Virus record (IMG/VR): IMGVR_UViG_3300017754_004939
Span: 710 to 64,709 of that record
Source: a virus
Lineage: Duplodnaviria; Caudoviricetes
Direction: 5' to 3' (one strand)
DNA: 64,000 nucleotides
Shown here in pieces: positions 36,549 to 42,324 of this stretch. The translations under genes were made by a program, and so were the position numbers. Position 1 is the stretch's first letter, and every line of letters begins with the position of its first letter. The notes below the pieces were generated by a model that was not told where the DNA came from, ran no database searches, and was given only the letters and a program-made list of their open reading frames with translations.

Positions 36549-37253
36549 CTATTTTCCAGGATTTGTTTTCGGCTGATTAAAGAATTTAGATCCTTTTATC
36601 TTTTTTATGGAATCTTCAACTCTAGTCTTAACACCTGGCTCAGAACCTTGAATGCGGCTTCTTATTAAATTAGTAGCCTGCTCTTTTTCTCCAGCTAAAA
36701 GTAATTTAGTAACATCGTACTTTAAATCCCCTCTATAAACTAAATCAAATAAAGCTTGTTGAGTATTATAATCGTATTTAAAAAAGTCTGGGTATAATCT
36801 CTTTAATGTATCTAGACGGGTCTTAACGTCGTAATTTAATAGCTTTTCTGCCTGAGGCTCAGTTAACTCAGCTGGTTTTTGTTTATTAAAAATTTGATCA
36901 AAATCAAATTCAGGTATAACTTTTTTGAAAATAGCTTTTGACTGGTTTACATTCTTTAAGCTATGACCCCAGCCAATTGTTGGGTCTTTAGGAGCTCTGT
37001 GCAACTTTTTAACTAAATTAAAATTAGTGCTACCTTCTCTCTTTTTAAGATCATGTTTAATTTTGTACATGAACTCTTCTTCAGAAGAAGGCTTTACAGC
37101 TTTCTGAACAATAGCTGGTTGTTCCTTTTGAGGTATCTCTTTAGCAGCACCAGGAGCAGCAATCAACCCAGCAGCAAGAAGACTCTTCCAGTCTAGTTTT
37201 TCTTCTACACTGTGAGCCTTTAATAAATGGTTTGAAAGCAATGTGAAGCTCAT
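36549..37253 (-). CDS. Phage lysozyme (GH24-like) with N-terminal extension
   Basis: LKKREG...KDPTIGWGHSL, LTEPQAEKLLNYD and QQALFDLVY. Confidence 0.75.
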   Translation of the reverse strand: MSFTLLSNHLLKAHSVEEKLDWKSLLAAGLIAAPGAAKEIPQKEQPAIVQKAVKPSSEEEFMYKIKHDLKKREGSTNFNLVKKLHRAPKDPTIGWGHSLKNVNQSKAIFKKVIPEFDFDQIFNKQKPAELTEPQAEKLLNYDVKTRLDTLKRLYPDFFKYDYNTQQALFDLVYRGDLKYDVTKLLLAGEKEQATNLIRSRIQGSEPGVKTRVEDSIKKIKGSKFFNQPKTNPGK

Positions 37254-37615
37254 TGACCTGTCATTTGAGGGTTAATAGTAGCAGATGTAAATGTTGGCTT
37301 CTTAGGAGCTGGAGGTAATCCTTGAGCCTGTCTTAGTTGATCACTCAAATCATTAACCATTCCCTCAAGATCTTTAATCTTTTTGAAAGAGTTTTGAACA
37401 TATGCATTTGTTTGCTTGTTCATTGCATCCTGCTGATTAGCCTGAGGAGTGTTTGGTGTAGCTGTTTTTTGAGTAGATGTAGATGCAGAAGAAGTAGATG
37501 GGTTGTTAATACTTTGCTGCCCAACAGGTGCCTGCAAACTCATCTTTGGAATAGTAGGAATGGTTAACCCTGGAGCCTGTTCCATTATACTGTTGTATAA
37601 TTCATCGAACGTCAT
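37250..37615 (-). CDS. Hypothetical low-complexity late protein
   Basis: TAAATA-N5-ATG; N-terminus MTFDELYNSIME; ATGA overlap with the lysozyme gene. Confidence 0.7.
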   Translation of the reverse strand: MTFDELYNSIMEQAPGLTIPTIPKMSLQAPVGQQSINNPSTSSASTSTQKTATPNTPQANQQDAMNKQTNAYVQNSFKKIKDLEGMVNDLSDQLRQAQGLPPAPKKPTFTSATINPQMTGQ

Positions 37616-37616
37616 A

Positions 37617-39323
37617 TTAATATTTATGAAAGCTATTAATAATTTTATCTACTTCACCTCTTACAGATTCAACTGATATACTCTTCATGCAAGCAGCTCT
37701 AAATGGATTCAAATGATCTTTAATCCATTTTAAGCTTTCAAAATCTTCCTTTACTTTACCAACTATATATGTTGTTGAGTCCCAAAAAGCGTGGTCGTTA
37801 TGAGCTGGAGTAACTACAATTCCTTTTTTACCCATTAAACCACATAGGTGCTGAAAGAATGTATCAACCCCCATAAAAAATCTGCTGTATATAATTAATG
37901 CTACTAATTCTCCAAATGTTCTATTAAAGAAGTACTCATTTACATTTTCGACTTTAAAATCTTCTTTTACTCCAACCTGAATAACATAATAGTTTTTACT
38001 CTGCAAATACGAGACAATCTGTTCCCATCTTTTAAAATCCCAGGTTTTATTACTGAGCATCAAACCATTACTAGGGCCTTCTCTATTACTAGCAGAAGGA
38101 GCAATAAGCACAATTTCTTTATTAAAAAACTCTTTCTTTATCTTTACTATATCATCTATATTATAAAAATATTTCCACCTTCTATTATTGTATAAATCTT
38201 CTTCTCCGTTCATTGAGAAATAGGCGCTCTCTAATGTTTTGCTGCGATTCTCACTACCATGTTCATAAACATTAAAACCTAACCCATTTAACTCCCACAT
38301 ATCATGTCTTAAAGGAATATCACCAGATAAATCATAAAGGAATGGGTAGGCTGTAGAAACCTTTAAGTTTGTTTTAGTTTTAAGAGATTCAAGTAGATTA
38401 AATGCACAAACATTGTCTCCTAAAGCCTCGTGAATATTAACCCATCTAACATTACCATTTATGAGGCCTTTTTCTTTCTTAGTCTCAAAGCGCTGCTTAT
38501 CTTCCTCACAAATAAGAGGTTCAGAAATATTATCACCCATTCTCTTAGCAAAATCATATATTGCCCATTCTAGTGTTTGGTATCTAAAATCTATACCACC
38601 AATCTGTCTAGCCTTTTTAATATCTTCAATGTACAAATAGCTAGAGGTATATTTGTTATCAAATGAAAACTCTTTAATAGAGAACTTATCATTTATAAGA
38701 AGAACCTTTTTATTTCTGCAAACATTTATTAACCTGTTCCAATTATAGGCATTTTCGTTATTTTCAAATCCTGTCTCTTTGTGTTTTGTAAAAATGCAGT
38801 TAATTGTAAATTTAGGTATATTATTAGTGAAGTTCTTATCTAACCACAATTCATTTTCACCATATACATGCAAAGGAATAAAATAGTCGTTATTAATATT
38901 ACTATTTCCAATTTCGTTTAAGGCTCTCTGTATTTCATTTCTATTTTCACTATAAGCTCCTAAAAATAAACTATCAGTTTTCTTTTCTTTTCTGAAAACA
39001 AAGTAATTATATTCCTCATCACTTTCGAAGCTTACTAAGTTAGAGTTAGCATTATGTAATAAATCAATATGATAAAACACTTCATTATAACACTCTTCAT
39101 GTGTTATTTTTTGTCTAACAATTAAAACACCTAAAGGTAATAGCCCTTTAGCTAAAGAGTGTAATTCGCTTTCTTGATGTGATAGTTTATCAAGATCTAA
39201 TATTATGAAATTATATTTTGGACAAACAGGAACCTTATAGGAGCCTACACTAGGGTACTTTGTAAAATTTACACTAGTTAAGTTTAAGCCTTTGCCTGTC
39301 AAATGCTTGTTCAGCGAGAACAT
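37617..39323 (-). CDS. GT9-like glycosyltransferase fused to a degenerate methyltransferase-like N-terminus
   Basis: IVLIAPSAS...KTWDFKRWEQIV...VIQVG...FMGVDTFFQHL. N-terminal LNKHLTGKGLNL parallels the methyltransferase at 59137. Confidence 0.75.
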   Translation of the reverse strand: MFSLNKHLTGKGLNLTSVNFTKYPSVGSYKVPVCPKYNFIILDLDKLSHQESELHSLAKGLLPLGVLIVRQKITHEECYNEVFYHIDLLHNANSNLVSFESDEEYNYFVFRKEKKTDSLFLGAYSENRNEIQRALNEIGNSNINNDYFIPLHVYGENELWLDKNFTNNIPKFTINCIFTKHKETGFENNENAYNWNRLINVCRNKKVLLINDKFSIKEFSFDNKYTSSYLYIEDIKKARQIGGIDFRYQTLEWAIYDFAKRMGDNISEPLICEEDKQRFETKKEKGLINGNVRWVNIHEALGDNVCAFNLLESLKTKTNLKVSTAYPFLYDLSGDIPLRHDMWELNGLGFNVYEHGSENRSKTLESAYFSMNGEEDLYNNRRWKYFYNIDDIVKIKKEFFNKEIVLIAPSASNREGPSNGLMLSNKTWDFKRWEQIVSYLQSKNYYVIQVGVKEDFKVENVNEYFFNRTFGELVALIIYSRFFMGVDTFFQHLCGLMGKKGIVVTPAHNDHAFWDSTTYIVGKVKEDFESLKWIKDHLNPFRAACMKSISVESVRGEVDKIINSFHKY

Positions 39324-39324
39324 T

Positions 39325-39918
39325 TTAATATTTCTTTAAAACGACTTCGATACAAGCTTCTACACCATCAGCAAAATTATACGTTTGGTCTACTCCTTTA
39401 CCGTAAAGAGAATAATCGTAATTAGAATCAATTAATTCAATTTTACGGCAGGTGACATTGTTAAGTTTTTGAATAATATCCAGCAAATTATAATGTCTTC
39501 CAGACCAAGACAATTGCTTATAAATGCTGAATGTCTTCTTATGAGAGTTGTTAAAGATAGAAGGGTAGTTACCCTGCTCATAGAGATCTTCATCTGGTAC
39601 AATAAAGACGAGATGTCCTTTTGATGCAACAAAGTTTAGCCAATGGTTAATAACACTTATAGGTTCATCTTCATATGTTACTAAATTAGTAGCATATACA
39701 AAATCGTATTGTTTGGCTCCAATTTGCTCGTTTAGGGTATCTGTTTCAACTTTAGAATCTGCCGAGTTAGCAAAAGAGATATTAGTACAAAGTGGGTAGT
39801 GCTGCTTCTTAAGTGGGTCGTTTCCAGGAGAAATATGTAACCCCTCTCCTTTAAAAACGTTAGTAAACAATCTATTATTGCTTCTTCTTAAAAAAGCTGC
39901 CTTAGTATTTTCGTACAT
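39325..39918 (-). CDS. Class I SAM methyltransferase-like protein (degenerate motif I)
   Basis: YDFVYATN, GHLVFIVPDEDLYEQG; paralog of 59137..60036. Confidence 0.7.
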   Translation of the reverse strand: MYENTKAAFLRRSNNRLFTNVFKGEGLHISPGNDPLKKQHYPLCTNISFANSADSKVETDTLNEQIGAKQYDFVYATNLVTYEDEPISVINHWLNFVASKGHLVFIVPDEDLYEQGNYPSIFNNSHKKTFSIYKQLSWSGRHYNLLDIIQKLNNVTCRKIELIDSNYDYSLYGKGVDQTYNFADGVEACIEVVLKKY

Positions 39919-39968: not shown

Positions 39969-40124
39969 ATGAATAAGAAAGACATCAATTCAATTGGAGA
40001 TGCATACGGTAAGGTCCCTAAGGCTCCTTATGTGAAGGTACAGGAAGATAAAGAAAAGCTCGCAAGAATGGCTCAGAAGAAAGAGAACATTCCTAACCAG
40101 CCAAAGCACACTAAGAAAGGTTAA
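39969..40124 (+). CDS. Small basic late protein (51 aa; absent from the ORF track)
   Basis: MNKKDINSIGDAYGKVPKAPYVKVQEDKEKLARMAQKKENIPNQPKHTKKG*, preceded by TAAATA-N5-ATG. Confidence 0.65.
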   Translation: MNKKDINSIGDAYGKVPKAPYVKVQEDKEKLARMAQKKENIPNQPKHTKKG

Positions 40125-40363
40125 CTTAAACCTTTAAACTTAGAAATAATATAGGTTGTTAAAGCCGAGATTACCGCTACTGCTCCCATGAGTAAGTAGC
40201 GGAAATTTTCTAAGGCACCCAGACGCTCACTATGTGAGTCAATTTTAGCATTAATCTCACTGACTTGTTTTTCTATATTATCAAGTTTGTTATTCATACC
40301 ACCTAATACAGCATTTATATCATTAGGATTGTAAGTAACATGTCCAGATTCTGAGCTTGCCAT
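40121..40363 (-). CDS. XhlA/hemolysin-like holin-type membrane protein
   Basis: N-terminal coiled coil (LDNIEKQV...RLGALE), one C-terminal TM segment and a basic tail. Confidence 0.6.
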   Translation of the reverse strand: MASSESGHVTYNPNDINAVLGGMNNKLDNIEKQVSEINAKIDSHSERLGALENFRYLLMGAVAVISALTTYIISKFKGLS

Positions 40364-40391
40364 ATTGAATATTTATTTTTTCTGTTGTATT

Positions 40392-40706
40392 TTATCTTCT
40401 TTTTTTGGTCTTTATTTTTTTGTTTCCATCAATTTTTTCTAAAAACTTTTCACTTACAATTTCAACCAATTTTAAGCCTAAAAAACCAGCAATAAACGCT
40501 ACACCATTTTGATGCTTAACATTTGTTACATTAAGAGTATCAACTAAAACAGGGGTTAAAAAATTAGCTGATGATAACCCACCAACAAGAGATAAAAAAA
40601 TAGATTTTACATCAGAGTTGTTGTTTCTAGAAGCCATTAATATAGCTCCAAACAAACCACTAACTAAAAACCCAATCTCAATTCCTACTTTATGAAGAGT
40701 TTCCAT
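40392..40706 (-). CDS. Holin-like membrane protein (three hydrophobic segments)
   Basis: GFLVSGLFGAIL / FLSLVGGLSSANFLTP / GVAFIAGFLGL, with a highly basic C-terminus. Confidence 0.65.
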   Translation of the reverse strand: METLHKVGIEIGFLVSGLFGAILMASRNNNSDVKSIFLSLVGGLSSANFLTPVLVDTLNVTNVKHQNGVAFIAGFLGLKLVEIVSEKFLEKIDGNKKIKTKKRR

Positions 40707-40709
40707 ATA

Positions 40710-41327
40710 TTATTTCTTTCTCTTTTTGGTTGTATTCTTTTTAATTGGAGACTCTTGATGCTTAATAATATAAACTAGGAAAATAATAATTAAACATAAT
40801 GAATAAAGATAAATATTTAATAGTTTTGTTTCATCCTTAATTATTTTTTCTGAACTATTATTAATTAGATCTCTAAATTTTTCTTTGCTTAGATATATTC
40901 TCTTTTTATAATCTAGATATTTTTCACTAAAGAACGCCTTGCTATCCATCTCTTTAAAAGCAGGTACTTCTACTTCTTTTGCTAATTCATTGCTAATATC
41001 TAAGCCAACACGAAATTCTTTTAATTCATCTTGAGTAAGTATTTTAGAAATAAAGATCTCGTTATTAAAATAATTTTCTCTTTCTTTTAGATGAACATTA
41101 AATTGCTCTAAGAATTTTTTATCACCTGTAGCTGTATATGCAGAACCAAGATATGTTAAATGATCTGTAGATCTTCTAAGAAAAAGAGTAATATCTCTAC
41201 CGAATCTAAACCTTGTAAAACCTTTTTCTATGTCTTTTAGGCTAGATATAGAAAGCATTGTTATAATGGCTACAGGAAGAGTAACCACTAACAAATATTT
41301 TTTAATATTTGTGAAAATAGCGTTCAT
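40710..41327 (-). CDS. Two-TM membrane protein with a chemoreceptor/histidine-kinase-like periplasmic sensor domain and no output domain
   Basis: TM1 (about aa 11-28), about 140-aa helical region with STDHLT..AYTATGD...LTQDE...SNELA.EVE...F..KYLDYKKRI, TM2 (about aa 171-189), short basic tail. Confidence 0.6.
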   Translation of the reverse strand: MNAIFTNIKKYLLVVTLPVAIITMLSISSLKDIEKGFTRFRFGRDITLFLRRSTDHLTYLGSAYTATGDKKFLEQFNVHLKERENYFNNEIFISKILTQDELKEFRVGLDISNELAKEVEVPAFKEMDSKAFFSEKYLDYKKRIYLSKEKFRDLINNSSEKIIKDETKLLNIYLYSLCLIIIFLVYIIKHQESPIKKNTTKKRKK

Positions 41328-41328
41328 T

Positions 41329-42300
41329 TTACTTTATCCATTTTTGCTCTCTTAAGATATTGTCGATAAGATTTTTCTCATCACTATCCATTTCTTTATC
41401 AAATCTCTTTAGTATTTCTGCTAAAGGATATACTCTATCTGGAGATTCTTTTTGCTTTTCCTTGAGTTCTTGAATAACATCGACTATCTTAACAAGAGGG
41501 GATTTAAATTCGTTAACAGTATCCTTTGAGGCATAATTTGCCATTTCAAATGCCTTTGGTGTTAAGGCCTTTACAAGAGATAGTAAAACTGATCCAAGCA
41601 TATTAAAGATTGAAAATGCAGCACCAGCAGCTGGATGTACAGTTGCTAACAAGCGTAACACAACGAATATTATTACAAAAATTACAATTATAGTTAATGC
41701 GCTAATAAAGAATTTCTTTAAGCCCCAAAATACTGCATTTAATCCAAACATACCGCTCATGGAATCTAATACAGCCTTATTTTGATCAGCCTCTTTGGCT
41801 ACCTCTTTAGCCTTGTCTGTCATCTGCCACAATTCATCATCATACTTGTCTTTTAAATCAGATTTTTCTTTTTGAAGTTTGTTAATTACTTCATCTCTCT
41901 GAGATAGTAATTCTTCACCCTTTTTACGTTCTTCTGCTACTTGAGAGTTTAATAAATCTACTGTTGCTTTGATACGTTTAATTTCGTCTATATGCGGAGA
42001 ACCAACAATAGAAATAACTCTTTCATTGAGAGCTTTTGCTGTATCTACTTGAACTGGTGCATTTGTTATTTTATTAAGAGAGTGTTGAATACCGATTGAT
42101 AAAGAAGATGTTTGAATTCTTTTACCTTTATCAACCTTTTCAATTTCAACCATTGTATTATCAACTTTTCTCTCTTGTTTTGCTACTGCATCTTGAGAGG
42201 CTGTTACCTGTTTTGCTGGTACAATTTTTGAAGATAAACAGCCACTTAACATTAAGATAAAGGCTATTGATAAGAAAATCTTCTTAATTGTTTTGGACAT
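41329..42300 (-). CDS. Lipoprotein with periplasmic coiled coil and C-terminal TM (unimolecular-spanin-like)
   Basis: Lipobox LSG-C21, coiled coil at about aa 105-180, TM ISALTIIVIFVIIFVVL. TAAATA-N5-ATG. Confidence 0.65.
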   Translation of the reverse strand: MSKTIKKIFLSIAFILMLSGCLSSKIVPAKQVTASQDAVAKQERKVDNTMVEIEKVDKGKRIQTSSLSIGIQHSLNKITNAPVQVDTAKALNERVISIVGSPHIDEIKRIKATVDLLNSQVAEERKKGEELLSQRDEVINKLQKEKSDLKDKYDDELWQMTDKAKEVAKEADQNKAVLDSMSGMFGLNAVFWGLKKFFISALTIIVIFVIIFVVLRLLATVHPAAGAAFSIFNMLGSVLLSLVKALTPKAFEMANYASKDTVNEFKSPLVKIVDVIQELKEKQKESPDRVYPLAEILKRFDKEMDSDEKNLIDNILREQKWIK

Positions 42301-42324
42301 ATTATTATTTATTAAAAGTTCCTG

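Follow-up and report, generated by a model that had tools for sequence, protein, structure and literature searches.

A gene for a small predicted holin and a gene for a 205-residue membrane protein with a sensor-like fold are a conserved pair in genuine phage lysis cassettes, where they are co-transcribed and in many cases translationally coupled. We describe the pair in a 64,000-nucleotide (nt) stretch of DNA (hereafter the window) from a virus of the Caudoviricetes (IMG/VR record IMGVR_UViG_3300017754_004939), where the two genes, g104 and g205, lie in a minus-strand cassette in the order g323, g205, g104 and g80. Structure modelling and topology prediction indicate that g205 is an inner-membrane protein whose two ends face the cytoplasm and which displays a receptor-type four-helix bundle in the periplasm. 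The likeliest reading, to which we give about even odds, is that g205 is a holin-associated lysis regulator with an antiholin-like role, alongside g104 as the hole-forming holin. The narrower proposal, namely that an output-less, receptor-type four-helix bundle acts as a ligand-gated antiholin in a widespread group of freshwater phages, with the signal passing from a distal pocket through the second transmembrane helix (TM2) to the holin, is possible but tentative.

The holin gene and g205 stay together across different cassettes

The four open reading frames (ORFs) of the cassette were found on the minus strand exactly where a preliminary description of this DNA had placed them (Table 1). They are separated by gaps of 1 nt (g323-g205), 3 nt (g205-g104) and 28 nt (g104-g80). 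A motif resembling the late promoters of phage T4, TAAATA-N5-ATG, stands immediately before g323; 11 copies are present in the window where 1.68 would be expected, and a count of 11 was reached in 0 of 100 shuffles. From the positions of this motif and the tight spacing of the genes, we concluded that g323-g205-g104 are read as a single late unit. The g80 gene is preceded by its own variant, TAAATA-N6-ATG. The motif also precedes g121, whose end overlaps the start of g234, and g121-g234 reads as a separate late unit further downstream.

Next, 56 related loci were gathered and their neighbouring genes were mapped by tblastn, a locus being counted as informative when the relevant flank was present. 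A g104-type holin gene directly adjoined the g205-type gene in all 53 informative loci, and the other three end at a contig edge on the side where the holin is expected. These loci fall into clades A (which includes the window), B and C, while one locus, L006, has a layout of its own (Table 1). In clades B and C the holin gene comes first, and its stop and the g205 start share 4 nt, an arrangement suggestive of translational coupling. The endolysin also differs between clades. That of clade B matches PHROG 894 (E 2e-37) and Pfam Peptidase_M15_3 (5e-17), with only g205 and one small gene between the holin and the enzyme. That of clade C, which is GH19-like, matches PHROG 3000/33083, can lie on either side of the pair and is 1-4 genes from the holin in most loci; a recognisable 'AHFLAQ..HESGGF' motif is present in locus L033. 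Since the pair survives an order swap, a change of orientation and three endolysin replacements, it is a functional lysis module. The link between g205 and a holin that the preliminary description had drawn from one locus thus holds in other phages, over three main layouts plus L006 and three endolysin types.

This persistence bears on a reading in which g205 has nothing to do with lysis timing and is instead a superinfection-exclusion protein or a host-receptor decoy that travels with the holin gene. Membrane immunity and exclusion genes are often found among late membrane-protein genes, and a protein shaped like a sensor might sequester a host ligand or pair with host receptors in mixed dimers. 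However, hitch-hiking does not explain an adjacency to the holin that is kept through three main layouts and an order swap, with 4-nt overlaps. Nor did PADLOC match any of the four cassette proteins, and g205 has no sequence similarity to a host receptor that would be available for pairing. We regard an exclusion or decoy role as very improbable.

The pair belongs to a lysis cassette

The product of g104 matched PHROG 2359 'holin' (E 8.2e-11), as did 28 of 28 aligned family members (best 9e-14). It has the features of the holin class, being a small membrane protein with a charged C-terminal tail and an endolysin gene nearby, and its three hydrophobic segments agree with the three-segment holin-like protein described previously. 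We predict from its sequence that g104 is the hole-forming holin. Two close homologues (P0142 and P0171) are labelled 'YeaQ/YmgE (transglycosylase-associated protein family)' by the Joint Genome Institute, a label that Pfam did not confirm for g104 at E up to 0.1. In the family alignments, the tails of the holin and of the g205-like protein are alike within each clade, with K-K-P-I-K-K repeats in clade C (the example being locus L044, Table 1), K-K-x-P-K-K in clade B and short K/R runs in clade A.

The candidate endolysin, g234, is encoded on the same strand, 3.1 kb downstream of the holin unit. Its match to Pfam Phage_lysozyme (PF00959; E 7e-4, 20.4 bits) falls just below the cut-off of 22.3 bits, and among its relatives P0277 carries PF00959 and P0275 carries LysM. 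When the PDB was searched with a profile of the g234 family, T4 lysozyme scored E 5.4e-5, and the best 60 of 548 matches listed were all T4 lysozyme/endolysin chains or T4-lysozyme fusion chains. AlphaFold2 (AF2) modelled most of the catalytic part with a predicted local distance difference test (pLDDT) score above 90. The top Foldseek matches of this model were nearly all T4 lysozyme (prob 1.00, TM-score by target 0.5-0.6), and the remainder are presumably T4-lysozyme fusion constructs. E73 is invariant in the family, and D90 and T92 are nearly so; the shared E-G and T-I-G-x-G-H motifs suggest that these residues correspond to E11, D20 and T26 of T4 lysozyme. With the PHROG 2359 holin, this T4-lysozyme-like enzyme, and the M15 and GH19-like endolysins that accompany the same pair in distant relatives, the neighbours are lytic as the preliminary description had supposed, and g205 belongs to a real lysis cassette.

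Two side observations were made downstream of the pair. Residues 22-38 of g234 form a nearly invariant Ala/Gly-rich hydrophobic segment (W-K-S-L-L-A-A-G-L-I-A-A-P-G-A-A-K) before the catalytic domain, which AF2 modelled poorly. This segment could be a signal-anchor-release or signal sequence, in which case the holin could be a trigger of the pinholin type. In clade A, genes for a methyltransferase-like protein (197 aa) and a GT9 heptosyltransferase-like protein (568 aa), both with weak Pfam matches, lie between the holin unit and the lysozyme unit. The 568-aa gene has 74% identity in relatives whose neighbouring genes have 86-99%.

g205 is predicted to carry a four-helix-bundle sensor fold without an output domain

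Two Lys residues before the first transmembrane helix (TM1) and the basic C-terminal tail suggest, by the positive-inside rule, that g205 has an N-in/C-in topology with its middle part in the periplasm. The preliminary description had envisaged a periplasmic helical domain of approximately 140 residues and a short basic cytoplasmic tail, and we measured 139 residues and 17 residues (8 Lys/Arg), respectively. AF2, run on a 15-sequence alignment, gave a model with a pLDDT of 83.5 and helices at residues 2-67, 70-94, 99-126 and 135-191. In this model the helices pack as an antiparallel four-helix bundle, with helix 1 continuous with TM1 and helix 4 continuous with TM2.

We then compared the model with known structures. 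VIA, a structure search over 48,161 PDB representatives that is independent of Foldseek, placed sensor domains in 12 of the 14 top positions. The best match was the CHASE3 domain of Rhodopseudomonas palustris HK9 (3VA9; Z 14.0, root-mean-square deviation 2.4, 121 of 127 residues), followed among the sensors by MCP2201, LytS-N, McpN, Vc1313, Adeh_2942, PcaY, NarQ, Tar, QseE and Tsr; the best structural matches span Z 10.7-14.0, and for helical bundles VIA itself cautions that Z values below about 13 are common. Foldseek ranked NarQ fragments comprising the sensor plus TM helices at the top. In the ESM Atlas, whose feature neighbourhoods are by the tool's own statement leads only, CHASE3 clusters made up 13 of 30 feature neighbours of whole g205 (score 0.96, 174 shared features) and 28 of 30 named neighbours of residues 31-169 (0.93). 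The Atlas's own model of g205 reached a TM-score of 0.8-0.9 to N-terminal modules of HAMP-GGDEF and MCP proteins, and the Atlas also lists stand-alone bacterial CHASE3 proteins of 170-195 aa.

Only the 17-residue Lys/Arg tail follows TM2 and ends the chain; a fusion to a HAMP, kinase, MCP, cyclase or GGDEF transmitter was not encountered. The sensor-module fold, membrane topology and lack of an output domain that were first proposed from the sequence are thus supported by AF2, VIA and the Atlas. At the level of fold class, a four-helix-bundle sensor is well supported by these models, and the models also indicate a CHASE3-style bundle between two TM helices. This arrangement is common to other four-helix sensor families, so it does not discriminate among them, and assignment to a particular sensor family is not supported.

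Conservation of g205 is concentrated away from the membrane

Conservation was mapped on 32 distinct g205-family sequences spanning clades A, B and C. The periplasmic bundle accounts for 30 of the 32 invariant positions; TM1 has none, and two (L170 and Y175) are at the periplasmic entry of TM2. The most conserved stretch (L-R-x-S-T-D-x-L-T-Y...A-Y-T-x-T, 12 of 18 residues invariant) is in the membrane-distal half of helix 1. The other invariant residues include F72, F76, H79 and R83 on helix 2, G108, S112, L115, A116, E120, A123 and F124 on helix 3, A131, and Y137, Y140, K141 and I144 on helix 4. Many are polar, among them R51, S53, T54, D55, T58, Y59, Y64, T65, T67, H79, R83, S112, E120, Y137, Y140 and K141. 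Nearly all invariant residues lie in the membrane-distal half, roughly 30-55 Å from the membrane, as estimated from residue numbers at 1.5 Å per residue with helix directions taken from the model.

The preliminary description had pointed to a pattern shared with the ligand-binding regions of bacterial sensors. Its elements are present in g205 as S53-T-D55-H-L57-T58, Y64-T-A-T67-G68-D69 and K141-x-x-I144; S53, D55, L57, T58, Y64, T67, K141 and I144 are invariant in the 32 sequences, whereas G68 and D69 vary within the family.

On the periplasmic side, the holin g104 exposes only its first few residues and one loop of roughly 12 residues. Since the holin is barely exposed at 30-55 Å, the conserved polar surface of g205 is unlikely to be a holin-binding site, and the distal site probably binds something other than the holin. 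g323 and the beta-rich proteins described below are poor candidates, as they are not shared among the clades. On the geometry of the model, a periplasmic ligand or a host component common to the three clades appears more likely.

The same map bears on the possibility that g205 is a holin subunit or co-holin, that is, a class-II-like, N-in/C-in protein with two TM helices and a large structural periplasmic loop, which would form the lesion together with g104 and bind no ligand. Such a loop would be comparable to the big periplasmic domain of the T4 holin T, the C-terminal tail after the two TM helices is rich in Lys/Arg and resembles that of the holin within clades, and translational coupling suggests a fixed stoichiometry. 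Moreover, two reports describe pairs of cooperating holin-like proteins in other phages (PMC13056207, PMC9327680). However, the membrane part of a hole-forming protein should be conserved, the reverse of the distribution seen in g205, and the fold of g205 resembles ligand-binding modules rather than T. Furthermore, the g104 family matches a PHROG built from cultured phages, whereas no relative of g205 was found in PHROGs or among GenBank phages; this pattern is more readily explained if g205 is an accessory that joined an existing holin than if it is an essential part of the pore. We consider a co-holin role unlikely, and return below to a holin-associated regulator as the preferred reading.

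Sequence searches find a mostly viral family

Homologues of g205 in metagenomes comprise 631 protein clusters. A phmmer search of 1.84 billion representatives returned 18 short metagenomic relatives of at most 211 aa, a length that leaves none with an output domain, and the Atlas clusters of the family are about 90% viral. Pfam, NCBIfam and PHROGs assigned no family to g205 and its relatives. There was no relative in GenBank phages and plasmids by tblastn, and nothing at E up to 10 in the Escherichia coli K-12 chromosome with the g205 profile. CHASE3 (PF05227) had no match in a six-frame scan covering the entire virus record (E up to 10) and none in seven megaplasmids, and two scans of genome contigs were likewise empty. 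A fold search of BFVD with g205 returned one member of its own family (A0A6J7WR66, from an uncultured phage) and no characterised viral protein. Among the PDB matches listed for g205 by sequence, Foldseek and VIA there was no RI or T chain, although such lists do not exclude a likeness.

Recent capture of g205 from a bacterium was considered and rejected, as no bacterial sequence relative was detected at the sensitivity of HMMER. The word 'captured', used for the sensor in the preliminary description, is therefore without support, given the short metagenomic relatives, the largely viral clusters and the lack of a Pfam CHASE3 match. Because no sequence method detects a relationship, we speak of a sensor-like fold rather than of family membership or capture; on present models g205 has such a fold and is not a proven member of CHASE3.

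Several observations weigh against the reading of g205 as a holin-associated regulator with a periplasmic sensor. The Pfam CHASE3 model (PF05227, cut-off 28 bits) gave nothing at E up to 10 for g205 and 15 family members, and a PDB sequence search returned only chance-level matches to RNase P protein and L22. Alignment by hhalign of a 33-sequence g205 profile with residues 1-215 of E. coli Tar gave a probability of 0.7% and aligned a TM segment alone, in what is a weak test since the Tar template was a single sequence. The Foldseek E-values of g205 are weak (0.05 and above). A Z of about 14 is near the noise ceiling of VIA and is the level that unrelated four-helix sensor families reach among themselves: McpN, which is PilJ-type, and 3VA9, entered as CHASE3 in Table 1 of PMC6381276, compare with each other at Z 13.6. 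The T-G-D turn was rejected as a diagnostic of CHASE3, as G68 and D69 are variable across the g205 family. The invariant residues of g205 could serve folding or oligomerisation instead of binding. The related loci are metagenomic and many are near-identical, so that 53 loci amount to four independent layouts. Lastly, any ligand, binding partner or effect of g205 on lysis is putative.

Neighbouring genes and the question of a spanin

g323 and g80 are less constant companions of the pair. In g323, which is linked to the g205-g104 pair in clade A and L006 only, 80 residues remain C-terminal to the hydrophobic segments. The preliminary description had called it spanin-like; the lipobox LSGC, the coiled coil and the TM segments bear this out as architecture, whereas Pfam and PHROGs gave no family above noise and no spanin family matched. 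By architecture alone, g323 is possibly an analogue of a unimolecular spanin of the T1 gp11 type. For g80, weakly conserved among relatives and termed XhlA-like previously, a coiled coil with a C-terminal TM helix is indeed present. However, Pfam XhlA (PF10779) gave no match at E up to 0.1, PHROG 1193 reached just 0.064, and the best PHROG was 5225 (E 1.5e-5), of unknown function. A strongly basic 51-aa ORF with its own TAAATA-N5-ATG motif converges on g80 from the opposite strand and overlaps its 3' end by 4 nt. This ORF is 100% identical in relatives in which the flanking genes are just 85-88% identical.

Two further kinds of gene recur in related cassettes. In the closest relatives of the window, which itself lacks the gene, a 327-334-aa protein is encoded between g323 and g205, and related genes follow the g205-like gene in clade C (Table 1). 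It has a basic N-terminus, a long acidic, low-complexity middle rich in Ala/Gly/Val/Ser, and a C-terminal Ala/Glu/Arg/Gln coiled coil ending in ..NWF or ..FRF; nothing was found for it in Pfam, PHROG or PADLOC. It is a recurrent neighbour in lysis cassettes. Just upstream of the holin, clades B and C have genes for beta-rich proteins whose N-terminus carries a TM helix or signal peptide, and at least one of these proteins has an aromatic C-terminus (..YTIKTW), like outer-membrane beta-barrel proteins.

These neighbours raise the possibility that g205 is an envelope-disruption protein analogous to a spanin, which would breach the outer membrane after wall degradation together with g323 or the beta-rich proteins. 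Across the three cassette layouts we recognised no canonical spanin pair encoded by two genes, the lipobox, coiled coil and TM segments just described are present in g323, and the proteins with aromatic ends stand beside the pair in clades B and C. However, i-spanins have one N-terminal TM helix and a free C-terminus, whereas g205 is anchored at both ends. Its confidently predicted compact bundle is about 55 Å long, too short for the periplasm, and no spanin family matched. The putative partners also vary by clade, whereas the distal surface of g205 is invariant. We judge a spanin-like role improbable.

Source and distribution of the locus

The window covers nearly all of a 64.7-kb record with an estimated completeness of 41%. 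The DNA around the locus is AT-rich, with a GC content of about 31-36%, and the window also encodes 8 transfer RNA genes, a transfer-messenger RNA gene, a ribonucleotide reductase and a Clp-like ATPase. Metagenomes of lakes and other fresh waters, contributed by about 14 studies, contain the 2.2-kb stretch of the cassette, and a search of sequencing runs with it listed no RNA data set. Related proteins are located on contigs of up to 230-348 kb. No GenBank phage record matched the DNA, g205 or g104.

Table 1. Features of the lysis region in the window and of related loci (positions preceded by L and a number refer to related loci)
Feature	Position	Strand	Description
Late-promoter-like motif	42298-42311	-	TAAATA-N5-ATG, T4 type, immediately before g323
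g323	41329-42300	-	323 aa; lipobox LSGC (Cys20), periplasmic coiled-coil part of about 165 aa, hydrophobic at about 197-243
g205	40710-41327	-	205 aa; predicted bitopic membrane protein, periplasmic four-helix bundle, no output domain
g205 TM1	41238-41294	-	residues 12-30; from hydropathy
g205 conserved stretch	41127-41180	-	residues 50-67
g205 periplasmic bundle	40821-41237	-	residues 31-169; from AF2 model and VIA structure search
g205 TM2	40764-40820	-	residues 170-188; begins with conserved L-N-I-Y-x-Y
g205 basic tail	40713-40763	-	predicted cytoplasmic, 17 aa; from sequence
g104	40392-40706	-	104 aa; predicted holin, three hydrophobic segments, basic C-terminal tail
g80	40121-40363	-	80 aa; coiled coil and C-terminal TM helix (tail-anchored)
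51-aa ORF	39969-40124	+	strongly basic
Methyltransferase-like and GT9 heptosyltransferase-like genes	37617-39918	-	between holin and lysozyme units in clade A
Late-promoter-like motif	37613-37626		TAAATA-N5-ATG, before g121
g121	37250-37615	-	small soluble protein opening the downstream late unit
g234	36549-37253	-	T4-lysozyme-like (GH24) muramidase, candidate endolysin; from Pfam, PDB profile, AF2 and Foldseek
g234 hydrophobic segment	37140-37190	-	residues 22-38
Clade A layout			window and loci of at least 68% identity: g323 - [optional 334-aa gene] - g205 - g104 - g80; T4-lysozyme-like gene further downstream
Clade B layout			40-44% identity: 128-aa gene - TM/beta-rich 190-aa gene - holin - g205-like - two-TM 69-79-aa gene - M15 peptidase endolysin
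Clade C layout			39-47% identity: GH19-like endolysin - two-TM 85-aa gene - signal-peptide beta-rich 99-aa gene - holin - g205-like - 327/334-aa low-complexity coiled-coil gene
L006 layout			g205 convergent with g323-holin unit
Holin, clade C example	L044:5642-6001		tail comparison
g205-like, clade C example	L044:5998-6633		tail comparison
327-334-aa protein gene	L003:2241-3245		also in L002, L004, L005, L009, L010, L021 and L023
Genes related to the 327-334-aa protein	L044:6630-7613; L033 from about 6563		clade C
Beta-rich protein genes	L029:2950-3540; L036:5085-5654; L044:5333-5632		clades B and C

Discussion

Antiholin genes usually adjoin holin genes (PMC7182436), T4 RI acts via its periplasmic domains (PMC8385771, PMC11413866), and TeaA/ArrA of vibriophage ICP1 are analogues of the T4 holin T and antiholin RI (PMC7182436). 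Like these two systems, the cassette described here combines a holin with a separately encoded, membrane-tethered protein that has a periplasmic domain, and in the logic that we propose a periplasmic event would likewise set the time of holin triggering. The phage of the window also shares late-promoter motifs of the T4 type. No likeness to RI, T, TeaA or ArrA was seen in sequence or fold. RI itself is small and is soluble or released in the periplasm, and in T4 the large periplasmic domain belongs to the holin. Here, by contrast, the small three-segment holin is almost without a periplasmic part, and its partner is predicted to be anchored by two TM helices and to carry the receptor-type bundle.

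With CHASE3 (HK9, 3VA9), PilJ/NarX/NarQ, Tar/Tsr and MCP2201, g205 shares in its model an antiparallel four-helix bundle of about 135 residues, the continuity of TM1 with helix 1 and of helix 4 with TM2, and the N-in/C-in topology. Unlike these bacterial receptors, g205 lacks HAMP, kinase, MCP and GGDEF domains, is encoded by a phage within a lysis cassette and has no detectable sequence homology to them. A bundle between TM helices without an enzymatic output is also seen in the stand-alone CHASE3 proteins of 170-195 aa and in GlnX of Corynebacterium glutamicum, an output-less four-helix-bundle transducer for which signalling through contiguous helices to a separate partner protein was proposed (PMC9769921). 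GlnX, however, has four TM helices and two bundles, and its partner is a cytoplasmic kinase, whereas g205 has one bundle and its proposed partner is a membrane holin. We place the finding with holins that have an adjacent periplasm-facing regulator, and there is a real chance that it represents a new signalling arrangement.

If g205 is a holin-associated regulator, it would associate with the holin in the membrane via TM2, TM1 and perhaps the similar basic tails, and a periplasmic ligand or partner would occupy the distal site. Binding there would shift helix 4/TM2 relative to helix 1/TM1, as in Tar, NarQ and GlnX, and this shift would alter the time at which the holin is triggered. Depending on the state of the envelope, whether set by a nutrient, an envelope-stress signal or superinfection, the T4-lysozyme-like enzyme would then lyse the cell later or earlier.

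A literature search found no paper in which both 'CHASE3' and 'holin' occur, and the proteins described in the lysis-regulation literature that we found are unrelated to g205. What is new here is the comparison of three cassettes and three endolysins, the evidence for translational coupling, the conservation map, the confirmation of the T4-lysozyme-like enzyme and the negative family tests.

To our knowledge, T4, ICP1 and, recently, N4 are the only phages in which a regulated delay of lysis (lysis inhibition) is understood. A ligand-gated antiholin would be a new kind of system for inhibiting or triggering lysis, and the first known example of a chemoreceptor-like sensor coupled to a pore-forming membrane protein in place of a kinase. 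A receptor-shaped partner of the holin would also demonstrate that sensors of the four-helix-bundle type need no enzymatic output to act on membrane proteins. The 139-residue periplasmic domain of g205 is a small and tractable target for ligand screening. Since lysis timing sets the burst size and spread of a phage, a receptor-shaped holin partner would let phages read the chemistry or state of the envelope directly and, given the abundance of the g205 family in freshwater metagenomes, could shape phage-host dynamics in lakes.

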